In this document: positions 47,983 to 50,570 of the stretch, in pieces
Layout of the letters: every line of letters begins with the position of its first letter
Numbering within the stretch: the stretch's first letter is position 1
Assembly (NCBI GenBank): GCA_041497115.1
Contig: JBGQFW010000006.1
Coordinates: forward strand, 5,698-69,697
Length of the DNA: 64,000 nt
Direction: 5' to 3'
DNA from: Candidatus Methylomirabilia bacterium
GTDB lineage: Bacteria > Methylomirabilota > Methylomirabilia > Rokubacteriales > CSP1-6
Position numbers and translations under genes: made by a program
Notes under the pieces: generated by a model
What the model was told of the DNA's origin: nothing
The model's database searches: none
Seen by the model: only the letters and a program-made list of their open reading frames with translations

Positions 47983-48240
47983 TCACCTCCCGATCCGTTT
48001 CTCGAGATAGGCCGCGATCTGGTTGACCGACTTCAGGCCGTCGACGTCCTCGTCGGGGATGGCCACGTCGTACGTCTCCTCCAGCGCGAGCAGCATCGCC
48101 GAGTGGTCGAGGGAGTCGAGGCCCAGGTCGAACAGGGACTGGTCGTGATCTCCCGGGCTCTCGACCGTGGGCGCGGCGTCCTTCACGGCCTTCAGGACGG
48201 CGGCGACGAGATCCTCGTCGGGCATGGCTGGCTCCCTCAC
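47983..48240 (-). CDS. acyl carrier protein
   Basis: 80-85 aa (GTG at 48240 in a GTGA overlap, or ATG at 48225). The phosphopantetheine site is LFDLGLDSLDHSAML. Confidence 0.8.
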   Translation of the reverse strand: MREPAMPDEDLVAAVLKAVKDAAPTVESPGDHDQSLFDLGLDSLDHSAMLLALEETYDVAIPDEDVDGLKSVNQIAAYLEKRIGR

Positions 48241-49046
48241 CGTTGATAGGGGCGCACGGCCGGCTCGCGCTCGACCCAGGCGTACAGGTCGCGCGCGAGC
48301 AGCGCGCGGGTCGCGTCGTAGAAATCCCGCAGCGGGAACGACCAGATGGTGCCGCGGGCCTCGGCGGCGGTGCGCACGCCGCCGGTGGCGGCATAGTGAT
48401 CGTAGATCCGGCGGTTGCCGTCCCGGCGGATATCGGCGTCCAGGTAGCAGACGAAGTGATAGAACGGCTCGACGCTCACCTTGTCGCCGCGCTTGACGGG
48501 GTGCATGAACTCCTTCGTGTAGCGGTACGGCACGCCCGTCACCAGCTCGATGTGGTGGATGACGCTGATCGACAGCCGCGGGTGCACACCGACGTGCAGC
48601 GCCAGCGCCCCCGCCTCGACGAGCCGCGACCAGACGGAGCCGACCCCGAAGGCGTGGCGGGAGACGTCGTCCACCAGGGCGCCCGCGCCGCCCCCCAGCG
48701 CGCTGACCGACCAGAACGGATGAAAGCTGCGGCGCGCGTCCGGCTGCAGGCGCACGAACTCGGCGAACGCGCCCATCTGGTGGCTCGGCGTGGTGTCCGG
48801 GTCGAACACCGTGGTCGTGTTGCAGAGGTTCGTCGACGCGGTGGGCACGACGATCGTGCCGTCGGGGCCCACGAGCTCGCGGAGCGCCGCCAGGTGGTCG
48901 CCGAGCAGCGCGGCGCGATCGTCGCGCGCTGACTCGCGCATCGGGCCGAAGTCGGCGGCGACGTAGACCACCCGGCCGCGCTCGACACCAAGCGCGCGAT
49001 AGCGGTCCACCAGCCGGCCCCGGCGGTCGCGCCCCGGCTCAGACAC
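48237..49046 (-). CDS. AAC(3)/Antibiotic_NAT-family N-acyltransferase
   Basis: 269 aa, with IVVPTAST, MGAFAEFVR....RRSFHPFWSVSALG and SVIHHIE, all typical of the aminoglycoside 3-N-acetyltransferase fold family. Confidence 0.75.
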   Translation of the reverse strand: MSEPGRDRRGRLVDRYRALGVERGRVVYVAADFGPMRESARDDRAALLGDHLAALRELVGPDGTIVVPTASTNLCNTTTVFDPDTTPSHQMGAFAEFVRLQPDARRSFHPFWSVSALGGGAGALVDDVSRHAFGVGSVWSRLVEAGALALHVGVHPRLSISVIHHIELVTGVPYRYTKEFMHPVKRGDKVSVEPFYHFVCYLDADIRRDGNRRIYDHYAATGGVRTAAEARGTIWSFPLRDFYDATRALLARDLYAWVEREPAVRPYQR

Positions 49047-49959
49047 GGGTGAGGATCCCGGTGGCCACGCTGAGCCCGACCCCGAAGCCGCTGATCAGCA
49101 CGCGGCGATCGGTGTCCTTCACGGTCTCGGCCAGCGCGACCGGAATGGACGAGGAGACCAGGTTGCCGTAGTCCTGGGCGCAGAAGACGGCGCGATCGGC
49201 GATCCCCATCCGCCGGGCGATGCTGTCGACGATGAAGCGGCTGCCCTGGTGCAGGACGAAGCGGTCGATGTCGCCGAGCGCCAGCGCGTTGGCGGCCAGC
49301 GTGCGCTCGATGCTGGCGGGAACCTCCGTGGCGCTGAAGCCGAACACCCCCCGGCCGCTCATGGTCAGCCGGCCGTCGCCGCCGACGGCCAGCGCGCCCC
49401 CCTCGGCGCCGAGTGACCGGAAGTCGCAGCGGCCCAGGCGCCAGACCGGCGCGTCCGTCAGCAGCGCCGCCGCCGCGCCGTCGCCGAACAGGAGCACGGT
49501 GTCGCGGTCGTCGGGACACACGATCTTCGAGTACGGATCGGCGGTGACGAGGACGCCGCGGGTCAGGGCGTGGGCGGCCATGAAGGCCGAGACGACCGCC
49601 AGGCCGTAGACGAACCCCGAGCACCCGAGCGAGATGTCGAACGTCGCGCACCCCGGCGCCAGCCCCAGCTTGCCGTGCATGATCGCCGAGGTGTGGGGGA
49701 GCCCGTGGCCGTCCGGGTTCTGGGTCACGACCACCAGGCACTGCAGCGCGCCGGCGTCGAGCGCGGCGTCCTCGAGCAGGCGCCGGACGGCGTGCACGCC
49801 GAGATCGGAGGTCTCGGTCCCGGCGGGCATCCGCGCCGTTCGGAGAAAGCCGATCTTGTCGCGCAGCAGCGCGTCGCTGGCCCCCACCCGGCGCGCGACC
49901 TCGGCGTTGTCGACGCGCCGCTCGGGGATGTGATACGCCAGCCGCGTCAGCCCGATCAC
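49039..49959 (-). CDS. 3-oxoacyl-ACP synthase III (FabH-like)
   Basis: GTG at 49959 overlaps the upstream stop (GTGA). 306 aa. The Cys-His-Asn triad contexts LGCSGFVYG, VLHQGS and YGNLVSSSIP are all present. Confidence 0.85.
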   Translation of the reverse strand: MIGLTRLAYHIPERRVDNAEVARRVGASDALLRDKIGFLRTARMPAGTETSDLGVHAVRRLLEDAALDAGALQCLVVVTQNPDGHGLPHTSAIMHGKLGLAPGCATFDISLGCSGFVYGLAVVSAFMAAHALTRGVLVTADPYSKIVCPDDRDTVLLFGDGAAAALLTDAPVWRLGRCDFRSLGAEGGALAVGGDGRLTMSGRGVFGFSATEVPASIERTLAANALALGDIDRFVLHQGSRFIVDSIARRMGIADRAVFCAQDYGNLVSSSIPVALAETVKDTDRRVLISGFGVGLSVATGILTRV

Positions 49960-50570
49960 GGCCGCTTCCGCGTGAAGTAGATGGCGCCGACCCGCCCGCC
50001 GTCGGCGCGGATGTGGGACTTGACCAGGCGCCCGCCGAGATCGGTCGCCCGGTGCAACCGGAGCGCCGCCGACGACGAGGGCAGCGTGCCGAGCTCCAGC
50101 CGCGAGAACCACCAGCCGCCCGCGCCCGCCGGCCCGGCGTGATCGAGCAGCCGCTTGTTCAGCGCCACCACCCGCTCGATGAGGGTGTACGGCGTGGCCT
50201 TCTGCTGGATGACATCCTCCCCCTCGATCACCGCGCCCGCCGTCACGGCGGCCTCGTCGTAGGGGCGGCGCTCGGCGACGCGGTCGTCGGTCTCGCGCAC
50301 CGCCCACACGGTGCGCCCCGACCCGCGCTGCACCTCGAGCAGCGCGGCGGGGCGGAACTCCGGCGGGGTCCCCGGTGAGAGCCGCACCGCCTCCACGCCG
50401 CGCGTGATCGGATGGTGCAGGGACAGCCGGAGGTCCGCGCCGGCGGGCTCGCGGGCGATTCCCGCCGCCTCGGCCAGCGCGTTGAAGAGGTCCGTGCCGT
50501 GCACGTAGGTCCGCTCGCCCTTGAACCACAGGCGCAGCGGCAGCACGGTGAGCGCGGCGGCCTCAGCCAT
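49956..50570 (-). CDS. hypothetical protein (no recognisable family)
   Basis: 204 aa. It is translationally coupled on both sides, with an 8-nt overlap with pseB and a GTGA overlap with the KASIII gene. No motif was recognised. Confidence 0.5.
   Translation of the reverse strand: MAEAAALTVLPLRLWFKGERTYVHGTDLFNALAEAAGIAREPAGADLRLSLHHPITRGVEAVRLSPGTPPEFRPAALLEVQRGSGRTVWAVRETDDRVAERRPYDEAAVTAGAVIEGEDVIQQKATPYTLIERVVALNKRLLDHAGPAGAGGWWFSRLELGTLPSSSAALRLHRATDLGGRLVKSHIRADGGRVGAIYFTRKRP

Follow-up and report, generated by a model that had tools for sequence, protein, structure and literature searches.

A stretch of 64,000 nucleotides from a Candidatus Methylomirabilia bacterium (contig JBGQFW010000006.1, positions 5,698 to 69,697), hereafter called the window, was found to carry a four-gene cassette directly downstream of pseB, a gene of pseudaminic acid (Pse) biosynthesis. 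The cassette encodes a 204-aa protein that models as a double hot-dog fold, a FabH-like β-ketoacyl-acyl carrier protein synthase III (KASIII), an Antibiotic_NAT/AAC(3)-fold protein (hereafter the AAC(3)-like protein), and a stand-alone acyl carrier protein (ACP). I consider that the cassette probably serves the acyl-ACP-dependent N-acylation of a nonulosonic acid (NulO) intermediate of the Pse type. The system is one version, with KASIII and hot-dog proteins, of a cassette that is widespread and has been glimpsed genetically in Campylobacter jejuni and Clostridium acetobutylicum. A fifth gene, which encodes a DUF4910/DUF2172 protein, lies 3.7 kb downstream of the four genes with the same orientation. 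These five genes are as follows.

49956-50570, minus strand: 204-aa protein with a predicted compact double hot-dog fold, first gene of the cassette (AlphaFold2 (AF2) model and Foldseek)
49039-49959, minus strand: FabH-like KASIII, 306 aa, GTG start (PF08545 and PF08541)
48237-49046, minus strand: Antibiotic_NAT/AAC(3)-fold protein, 269 aa, proposed acyl-ACP:amino-sugar N-acyltransferase (PF02522)
47983-48240, minus strand: stand-alone ACP with a DSL phosphopantetheine site, GLDSLD (PF00550)
43170-44522, minus strand: metallopeptidase-like DUF4910/DUF2172 protein from the same family as C. jejuni Cj1295 (PF16254 and PF09940; PDB 3k9t, 7.9e-34)

The four genes after pseB are translationally coupled. 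The pseB gene overlaps with the 204-aa gene by 8 nt (ATGGCTGA), the 204-aa gene with the KASIII gene by 4 nt (GTGA), the KASIII gene with the AAC(3)-like gene by 8 nt (GTGTCTGA), and the AAC(3)-like gene with the ACP gene by 4 nt (GTGA again), while 5 nt separate the stop codon of the ACP gene from the start of a gene for a B12-binding radical SAM protein. These coordinates match those of the initial annotation, which had described four tightly overlapping genes directly after pseB. The third-position G+C content (GC3) is 0.94-0.98 across all four frames, in a window with a G+C content of 73%, and identical gene calls were found in two metagenome-assembled genomes at NCBI (GCA_041495465.1 and GCA_041492705.1). 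The 496-aa KASIII frame of the list of open reading frames (ORFs) is over-extended upstream. The ACP is 85 aa in length from its GTG codon or 80 aa in the public annotation, which starts at the ATG at 48225.

The families to which the KASIII, the AAC(3)-like protein, and the ACP had been assigned were upheld by Pfam profiles. The AAC(3)-like protein matches Antibiotic_NAT (PF02522) with 107.3 bits against a gathering cut-off of 25, over profile positions 20-231 of 232. The best Foldseek match of its AF2 model (predicted local distance difference test (pLDDT) 94.1) was FrbF, the N-acetyltransferase of FR-900098 biosynthesis (3sma, E 1.8e-20, template-modelling score (TM) 0.76), followed by AAC(3)-III, -IV, -VI, and -X (TM 0.73-0.80). 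It is known that Antibiotic_NAT enzymes have a catalytic motif TxΦHΦAE, made up of a Thr/Ser oxyanion residue, a His base, and its Glu partner (PMC8956665, PMC5884680). The segment S161-V-I-H164-H-I-E167 of the window protein fits this motif, H164 aligns with the His residue of FrbF and with His183 of BA2930, and the motif His and Glu are conserved at 90% or more within the subfamily to which the window protein belongs. This subfamily (about 265 aa, 40-76% identity) has particular invariant motifs: LCNT, RSFHPF, and VPYRY.KE..HP. FrbF and the AAC(3) enzymes have the fold and the Thr/Ser-His-Glu motif in common with the window protein, but the identity is 20-25%, the window protein lies far under the AAC_3 cut-offs, and its conserved partner is an ACP, whereas the FrbF/AAC(3) members use acetyl-CoA. 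A cluster look-up of homologues returned marine and uncultured Pseudomonadota only, and no Campylobacter.

The KASIII has the N-terminal and C-terminal ACP_syn_III domains (PF08545, 67.8 bits; PF08541, 66 bits). Its motifs GCSGF, HQGS, and GNLVSSS align with vCaGF, HQaNR, and hGNtsaaS of the FabH structure 4ryb, and the catalytic Cys-His-Asn triad is, by this alignment, intact, as had been claimed. Its closest PDB relatives are true FabH enzymes (4ryb, 1.7e-41; Escherichia coli 1hn9, 5.9e-34), and its scores stay under the housekeeping FabH cut-offs (194.5 against 249 for NF006829 and 172.7 against 292.1 for TIGR00747). Judged from these scores, it is a divergent, pathway-dedicated paralogue, and it is proposed to make or load an acyl group on the dedicated ACP. 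The ACP has a PF00550 domain (45.8 bits) with the GLDSLD site, whose serine is Ser43 of the 85-aa form, shows 36% identity to the ACP of a related Magnetospirillum locus, and falls short of the AcpP equivalog cut-off of NCBIfam (46 against 70.45). The AAC(3)-like protein is likewise under the NCBIfam resistance cut-offs (73.7 against 270 for AAC_3, 59.8 against 420 for AAC_3_IV, and 43.9 against 480 for AAC_3_II). Because the three proteins score well under the FabH, AcpP, and resistance AAC(3) cut-offs, they are regarded as dedicated paralogues.

The 204-aa protein was left without any assignment in the initial annotation. As a single sequence it has no match in Pfam, NCBIfam, or PDB, a 100-member profile of its family found nothing in PDB at E 10 or better, and none of the 100 members matches a Pfam family, with no hot-dog family reached even at E 1. 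In AF2 (pLDDT 90.6, predicted TM-score (pTM) 0.88), the protein was modelled with a compact fold of the double hot-dog type. Foldseek gave 48 matches in PDB with E values no higher than 1e-3 (best E 6e-6; query TM-score (TMq) 0.31-0.52), and among the 50 top matches listed are mainly acyl-ACP thioesterases (2ess, 2own, FatA, FatB), thioesterase II, dehydratase domains of polyketide synthases (PKS), and hydratase 2. The family is large; an exhaustive profile search with clustering at 50% yielded 1513 cluster representatives, nearly all 185-215 aa in length and without a Pfam entry. In the 100 members, R20 and K139 are invariant, and E106, Y22, D27, and W153 are conserved at 97-99%. Between the window protein and its counterpart in the Magnetospirillum locus, the identity is 26% (E 2e-16). 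The family also extends beyond NulO loci: a member with 34% identity (P0131; L050, 7518-8108) adjoins a terminase gene on a phage-like contig with no AAC(3)-like gene nearby.

Is the cassette common in other bacteria? I collected 44 loci with an AAC(3)-like gene from about nine phyla, two by contig look-up (a Magnetospirillum metagenome-assembled genome and Fundidesulfovibrio butyratiphilus) and 42 from a scan of species-representative genomes. They belong to Rhodospirillales, Pelagibacteraceae, several Gammaproteobacteria, Desulfobacterota, Verrucomicrobiota, Planctomycetota, Bacteroidota, Parcubacteria, and others. Neighbours were counted within 8 kb of the AAC(3)-like gene by searches with the window proteins and with hidden Markov models of the families; some loci without partners sit on contigs that end short. 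An ACP gene was found in 34 of the 44 loci, DUF4910 in 29, NeuB in 26, DegT in 25, and the hot-dog protein in 24. Annotation-free clustering of all the neighbouring ORFs gave the same ranking of partners. The pairing of an ACP with the AAC(3)-like protein, which had been noticed in the window, thus recurs in many phyla. DUF4910, the strongest co-occurring partner after the ACP in these counts, had not been included in the module of the initial annotation.

Since a genome has only a few ACP genes, the adjacency of an ACP gene in three quarters of the loci cannot, in my view, be due to chance. The enzymes that may load the ACP differ from locus to locus. KASIII occurs in 17 of the 44 loci and an AMP-dependent ligase in 15, and the two occur together in one locus only. 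A constant ACP and acyltransferase combined with a swapped loader is the pattern expected if the transferase draws its acyl group from the ACP. Two architectures are recurrent: that of the window (hot-dog, KASIII, ACP, AAC(3)-like, and DUF4910) and one with ACP, AMP-ligase, AAC(3)-like, a short-chain dehydrogenase/reductase (SDR), hot-dog, and DUF4910. On a 651-kb metagenomic contig (L051, 10001-13958), a block of hot-dog, KASIII, AAC(3)-like, ACP, and DUF4910 genes is inserted between the RNase H and RNase T genes, with no NeuB gene within 10 kb of the five genes. This free-standing block indicates that the cassette is a discrete unit; it may work in trans or be mobile.

In Pseudoalteromonas shioyasakiensis (L015, 3169-10777), the genes for ACP, AMP-ligase, and AAC(3)-like protein are flanked by those for ComA (phosphosulfolactate synthase), an XcbC-like lyase-family protein, a fumarate-reductase/NadB-like flavoprotein, and a phosphoadenosine phosphosulfate (PAPS) reductase. 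The same trio of F. butyratiphilus (L006, 6116-10801) is flanked by ComA and a His_Phos phosphatase. Both sets of flanking genes hint that Pse or legionaminic acid (Leg) carries a sulfonated acyl group there. In a planctomycete locus (L036), a gene for an LpxD/LpxA-like hexapeptide acyltransferase comes right after the ACP gene.

A related gene set is known from C. jejuni NCTC 11168. The Cj1293-Cj1304 sub-locus comprises pseB, pseC, Cj1295, Cj1296/7, Cj1298, acpP2, Cj1300, Cj1301, Cj1302, fabH2, and acpP3; Cj1299 is acpP2 (PMC3749442), Cj1302 is an FkbH-domain gene (PMC7099621), and Cj1303 is fabH2 (PMC3229698). This gene content was taken from the literature, and Cj1295 is the only cassette gene with a knockout there. 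Cj1295 (DUF4910), which lies beside pseB and pseC, is required for the 7-acetamido-5-(2,3-di-O-methylglyceroyl)amino-Pse of flagellin, and its authors proposed the cleavage of the 5-acetamido group (PMC3068675). Cj1296/7 is phase-variable and annotated as an aminoglycoside N3′-acetyltransferase, and its in-frame form rose 20.9-fold on mouse passage (PMC3025981). Genes for DUF4910, an AAC(3)-family protein, an ACP, a FabH-like protein, PseB, and PseC are common to C. jejuni and the window, where they are co-directional (43170-57004). In contrast to C. jejuni, the window has a double hot-dog gene in the operon, a B12-radical SAM gene, a Gfo/Idh/MocA gene, and a class-III aminotransferase gene, and it lacks FkbH and HAD genes; no HAD or FkbH-type gene was found among the window ORFs in Pfam and NCBIfam scans. 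Since the window has KASIII instead of an FkbH loader, its acyl group is expected to be derived from KASIII and not from glycerate as in C. jejuni. The window cassette serves a Wzy/glycosyltransferase (GT) polysaccharide locus, whereas that of C. jejuni serves Maf-dependent flagellin glycosylation.

The neighbourhoods of DUF4910 genes were described by Das et al. in 2014 with the structure of C. acetobutylicum CA_C2195 (3k9t), a DUF4910/DUF2172 protein, and a role in transacylation or deacylation was suggested (PMC4000134). Like the window, these neighbourhoods combine DUF4910, across phyla, with a NeuB-type synthase, a nucleotidyltransferase, an 'aminosugar N-acetyltransferase', and an ACP (PMC4000134). 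The cluster of the 'aminosugar N-acetyltransferase' CA_C2197 contained 64 proteins, that of acpA (CA_C2198) contained 17, and CA_C2199 beside acpA was described as 'aminosugar N-acetyltransferase + HAD phosphatase' (PMC4000134). The 64 AAC(3)-family neighbours of the supplement include a fragment of Cj1296 as well as complete N-acetyltransferases from C. jejuni (255-268 aa), and FkbH-like proteins of 563-830 aa share a BLASTCLUST group with 'aminoglycoside N3-acetyltransferases' of 250-290 aa beside DUF4910 (PMC4000134). I read the 563-830-aa proteins as fusions of the acetyltransferase with glyceryl-ACP loaders. Unlike the present analysis, that of Das et al. was centred on DUF4910, proposed no acyl transfer from ACP to an AAC(3) enzyme, did not recognise the hot-dog family, reported KASIII neighbours in only two genomes, and contained nothing experimental on the neighbourhoods (PMC4000134). 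The initial annotation regarded the gene combination as one not described as a glycan-decoration system. This holds only in part, given the C. jejuni locus and these neighbourhoods. In the literature searched, no paper was found to give an AAC(3)-fold enzyme an acyl-ACP donor or to test the proteins beyond the Cj1295 knockout.

Several points weigh against an ACP-fed AAC(3)-like enzyme. Every characterised Antibiotic_NAT enzyme has acetyl-CoA as its donor (PMC8956665, PMC5884680), and the sequence of the AAC(3)-like protein by itself proves no switch from acetyl-CoA to ACP. Fifteen of the 44 loci have no DUF4910 gene and ten have no ACP gene within 8 kb, some of them on contigs that end short. 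In particular, no ACP was detected in five loci of the SAR86/Bacteroidota type (L016, L018, L019, L023, and L031; about 9000-12600 in each), where NeuB and DUF4910 are accompanied by an HpcH/HpaI protein (CitE/RipC-like) and the AAC(3)-like protein; these loci may represent a CoA-ester-dependent variant. Pfam scans of the main window ORFs revealed no malonyl-CoA:ACP transacylase (FabD), phosphopantetheinyl transferase, or SDR ketoreductase, in agreement with the initial annotation. No His residue is invariant in the 204-aa family; His24 occurs in 73% and His52 in 63% of the 100 members. DUF4910 proteins are without the canonical metallopeptidase catalytic residues (Das et al., PMC4000134), which makes their role as deacetylases uncertain. 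Cj1296/7 and the window protein are linked only by a shared annotation and by the BLASTCLUST grouping. Finally, a literature search on pseudaminic or nonulosonic acid together with ACP or N-acyltransferase returned no biochemical study of the module. On account of the variable His residues, the 204-aa protein was downgraded as a canonical FabZ/PKS-type dehydratase, and the modelled fold may act as a thioesterase, a decarboxylase, or an atypical dehydratase. As a separate observation, a gene for a LIC12162-family transferase follows the AAC(3)-like gene in L023.

It might be supposed that the Pse pathway simply has in the AAC(3)-like protein a conventional N-acyltransferase that uses acetyl- or acyl-CoA, for example a re-acetylating one, and that the ACP, KASIII, and hot-dog proteins make a separate acyl or lipid moiety attached by another enzyme, such as DUF4910 acting as a transacylase. 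The acetyl-CoA donors of the family (PMC8956665, PMC5884680), the SAR86-type loci with a CitE-like CoA-ester enzyme and no detectable ACP, and the transacylation suggested for DUF4910 by Das et al. (PMC4000134) would all fit this arrangement. It is hard to square independent functions, however, with an ACP in 34 of the 44 loci that is served by three unrelated loaders (KASIII, AMP-ligase, and FkbH), or with the FkbH-acetyltransferase fusions. Moreover, some loci, among them L006, L011, and L015, have only ACP, AMP-ligase, and AAC(3)-like genes, with no other candidate transferase adjoining. Thus, I regard separate functions as unlikely.

Another possibility concerns the acceptor. The AAC(3)-like protein might take the place of PseH and use acyl-ACP to acylate UDP-4-amino-4,6-dideoxy-β-L-AltNAc at its 4-amino group, so that an N7-acyl Pse such as Pse5Ac7(3-hydroxybutanoyl) results, with DUF4910 unrelated to the process. 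Pse with an N7-(3-hydroxybutanoyl) group is common in nature. In P. shioyasakiensis (L015), the genes are in the order PseB-PseC-AAC(3)-like, with ACP and AMP-ligase genes divergent and no DUF4910, and the GNAT acetyltransferase of the window matches PseH weakly (27.1 against 93.1 bits). In loci without DUF4910, as in this Pseudoalteromonas, the AAC(3)-like protein may indeed act at the PseH step. On the other hand, DUF4910 co-occurs in 29 of the 44 loci, the C. jejuni DUF4910 protein governs the N5 substituent and not N7 (PMC3068675), and the window and most loci of the KASIII type retain a separate GNAT, a PseG-PseH fusion, or a formyltransferase for the PseH amine. Rhodanobacter aciditrophus (L030) has a complete divergent operon PseB-PseC-PseF-(PseG-PseH fusion; TIGR03590, 269.6 bits)-PseI with the cassette beside it. 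In Thiofilum flexile DSM 14609 (L025), the cassette occurs together with a separate GNAT and a GT28-like PseG. Marinomonas ostreistagni (L026) has a minimal cassette island with Maf and housekeeping genes at its borders, in which a sugar N-formyltransferase-DUF218 fusion (4022-5218) stands in place of PseG and PseH alongside the cassette; the fusion is reminiscent of 7-N-formyl, 5-N-acyl pseudaminic acids. Since such enzymes accompany the cassette wherever the loci are best resolved, a plain PseH replacement was downgraded as a reading of the AAC(3)-like protein in the window, and I find this role quite doubtful there. Rather, the cassette looks like an add-on to a usually complete Pse pathway. 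As the PseH or formyltransferase amine is already served, the other nitrogen, N5, is indicated as the target. The earlier proposal that an AAC(3) enzyme with a dedicated ACP N-acylates a NulO amino sugar has strong comparative-genomic backing from the ACP genes beside the AAC(3)-like gene in 34 of the 44 loci. The likely acceptor is N5, once its acetyl group has been taken off, and probably not the PseH amine.

Natural-product pathways are known to include KASIII-like proteins that acylate sugars with groups taken from ACP or CoA. It is nonetheless highly improbable that the window KASIII itself O-acylates a sugar from acyl-ACP in the manner of CerJ/ChlB6, leaving mere N-acetylation to the AAC(3)-like protein: its scores under the FabH equivalog cut-offs would allow this, but the solved structures nearest to it in sequence are those of genuine FabH enzymes, its Cys-His-Asn triad is intact, and elsewhere it is substituted by the AMP-ligase, which is an ACP loader and not a transferase to sugars. 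Chance placement of an aminoglycoside resistance determinant in a glycan locus, as PF02522 membership and the public annotation ('aminoglycoside 3-N-acetyltransferase') might suggest for the AAC(3)-like gene, can practically be dismissed in view of 73.7 bits against a 270-bit AAC_3 cut-off and lower scores for every named subtype, the translational coupling inside a Pse operon, the neighbourhood conserved with ACP, DUF4910, and NeuB, the lack of any plasmid homologue at E 1e-10 or better in a tblastn search of PLSDB, which argues against a mobile resistance gene, and the outgroup members FrbF, YokD, and BA2930, which are without aminoglycoside activity (PMC8956665).

From the gene identities, folds, catalytic motifs, operon structure, and cross-phylum association, I infer a donor, an acceptor, an order of steps, and an acyl structure for acyl-ACP-dependent N-acylation. 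The four genes and DUF4910 would constitute a portable 'N-acyl swap' cassette added to the Pse pathway. First, housekeeping enzymes would phosphopantetheinylate the dedicated ACP and, if needed, malonylate it. The KASIII, as its FabH-type triad suggests, would then put a short acyl unit on the ACP; the likeliest product would be acetoacetyl-ACP from acetyl-CoA and malonyl-ACP, and direct acyl-CoA:ACP transacylation is the alternative. The acyl-ACP would then be tailored by the hot-dog protein, whether by dehydration, by thioesterase editing, or by decarboxylation, and in the window the Gfo/Idh/MocA protein, a PRK06209-type aminotransferase, and the B12-radical SAM protein may join in. It is possible, as a tentative assignment, that the acyl group is a C4 3-oxo- or 3-hydroxyacyl group. 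By analogy with Cj1295, DUF4910 is proposed to expose the acceptor amine by de-N-acetylation or to aid transacylation; most likely it would remove the 5-N-acetyl group from a Pse5Ac7Ac-type intermediate. N5 as the acceptor with DUF4910 as the deacetylase is, taken together, again put forward tentatively. At the central step, the AAC(3)-fold enzyme with its His164/Glu167 dyad would move the acyl group to the amine from acyl-S-ACP, not from acetyl-CoA. The product, a Pse5(acyl)7Ac derivative, would be CMP-activated and then incorporated into the polysaccharide of the surrounding Wzy/GT locus.

The remaining Pse-pathway and candidate tailoring genes of the window are as follows.

55811-57004, minus strand: PseC aminotransferase (TIGR03588, 441.5 against a cut-off of 423.5)
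50563-51534, minus strand: PseB, inverting UDP-GlcNAc 4,6-dehydratase (TIGR03589, 467.8 against a cut-off of 407.75)
46284-47978, minus strand: B12-binding radical SAM protein, a candidate for tailoring, perhaps by C-methylation, of either the acyl group or the sugar (PF02310 and PF04055)
45286-46272, minus strand: Gfo/Idh/MocA oxidoreductase, candidate reductase or sugar dehydrogenase (PF01408 and related domains)
44519-45286, minus strand: CMP-sugar (KdsB/PseF-like) cytidylyltransferase (PF02348; weak matches to KdsB and PseF, 26.4 against 205.7)
40628-41917, minus strand: class-III aminotransferase, PRK06209-type and like glutamate-1-semialdehyde (GSA) aminomutase (NF004856, 462.1 against a cut-off of 486)
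39582-40631, minus strand: NulO synthase of the NeuB/PseI type (PF03102 and SAF; TIGR03569 316 and TIGR03586 266.8 against 340.25, both below cut-off)
39110-39571, minus strand: GNAT acetyltransferase, candidate PseH (GNAT families of Pfam; weak TIGR03585, 27.1 against 93.1)
38083-39117, minus strand: PseG-like UDP-sugar hydrolase (TIGR03590, 115.4 against a cut-off of 153.55)

By these profile scores, the window appears to hold a full Pse-type pathway, with PseB and PseC above the equivalog cut-offs and the remaining steps represented by homologues below them. The glycan locus is one long minus-strand run from about 63 kb down to 17.7 kb, where it begins at a Wzy_C gene (17699-19144). Besides the Wzy_C protein, the rest of the locus encodes several GT4 and GT2 proteins, methyltransferases, and further DegT aminotransferases, and no Maf gene was found in it by Pfam scans of the window ORFs. 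Since Wzy/GT genes are present and Maf is absent, the sugar is expected to go into a polysaccharide. Genes of the first 17 kb (1-17000) are of the housekeeping kind, namely a Zn-dependent alcohol dehydrogenase gene, comEC, a class I/II aminotransferase gene, rpoA, yceG, argH, dapA, dapB, and folK.

The B12-radical SAM gene after the ACP gene has homologues in two of the loci and is not conserved with the cassette elsewhere. Its product resembles named B12-binding radical SAM families only weakly. There is a second such gene at 29797-31341, and neither protein reaches the cut-off of any of these families. The Gfo/Idh/MocA protein is IolG-like and UDP-GlcNAc 3-dehydrogenase-like, below the cut-offs, and has a close homologue in the planctomycete locus L036 (9e-53). 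An orthologue of the PRK06209-type aminotransferase is also present there (8655-9938; 1e-161), immediately upstream of the AAC(3)-like gene; in the window, conversion of a 3-oxoacyl group from β-keto to β-amino or tailoring of the sugar is a possible role of this aminotransferase. Between pseC and pseB (51561-55745) lie genes for an ATP-sulfurylase/adenosine phosphosulfate (APS) kinase fusion, a small winged helix-turn-helix (wHTH) protein (MarR/HTH_24), and an MsbA-like ATP-binding cassette (ABC) exporter, which suggests sulfation and ABC-dependent export of the glycan. Two further genes, for a soluble protein of 418 aa (41917-43173) and a multi-pass membrane protein of 560 aa (57001-58683), have no match in Pfam or NCBIfam and no homologue in the 44 loci.

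Other amino-sugar pathways also have ACP-linked acyl modules, such as Vibrio cholerae O1 RfbK-N, which puts tetronate on perosamine, and butirosin BtrI/BtrH; in these, as in the Aeromonas module described below, the ACP presumably hands its acyl group to an amino sugar. The butirosin module has a BtrH-type transferase and not the Antibiotic_NAT fold of the window. Like the window, the group II flagellin glycosylation island of Aeromonas has a dedicated ACP and a loader in a sugar-modification locus; its genes encode an ACP, a 3-oxoacyl-ACP reductase, an AMP-ligase, LuxE, and LuxC (PMC7874193). As an equivalent of the cassette it was set aside, the kinship being thematic only, with a LuxE-type transferase and no Antibiotic_NAT protein mentioned (PMC7874193). 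The Shewanella sfmABCDE genes were rejected as a known equivalent, since they encode a NeuB-like protein, a thiamine pyrophosphate (TPP) enzyme, an SDR, a methyltransferase, and an ATP-grasp protein but neither an ACP nor an AAC(3) protein.

The N-acyl groups of bacterial NulOs include acetyl, formyl, 3-hydroxybutanoyl, glyceroyl, and acetimidoyl groups, and they shape serotype, recognition by phages and antibodies, and flagellar function. To my knowledge, only acetyl transfer (PseH and LegH) is enzymatically understood among the NulO N-acylations. DUF4910, the AAC(3)-fold transferase, the ACP, and a loader make up a candidate enzyme set for the non-acetyl groups, which is widespread and modular, and cultured hosts with minimal islands are available in M. 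ostreistagni, R. aciditrophus, and T. flexile DSM 14609. The AF2 model also offers a structural class for an unannotated hot-dog family with more than 1500 cluster representatives. It is quite possible, if somewhat short of what I would expect, that the subfamily of about 265 aa represents the first ACP-fed Antibiotic_NAT enzymes, that it forms with DUF4910 a portable cassette with interchangeable loaders (KASIII, AMP-ligase, or FkbH), and that the 204-aa protein founds a new family of acyl-ACP double hot-dog proteins. If this is true, the cassette would account for much of the unexplained N-acyl diversity of Pse and Leg (3-hydroxybutanoyl, glyceroyl, and possibly sulfolactyl), and the phase-variable, host-selected Cj1296/7 would have a function. 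The Antibiotic_NAT fold, known mainly from resistance, would extend to acyl-ACP-dependent glycan tailoring, which would provide a plausible housekeeping origin for the AAC(3) resistance enzymes.

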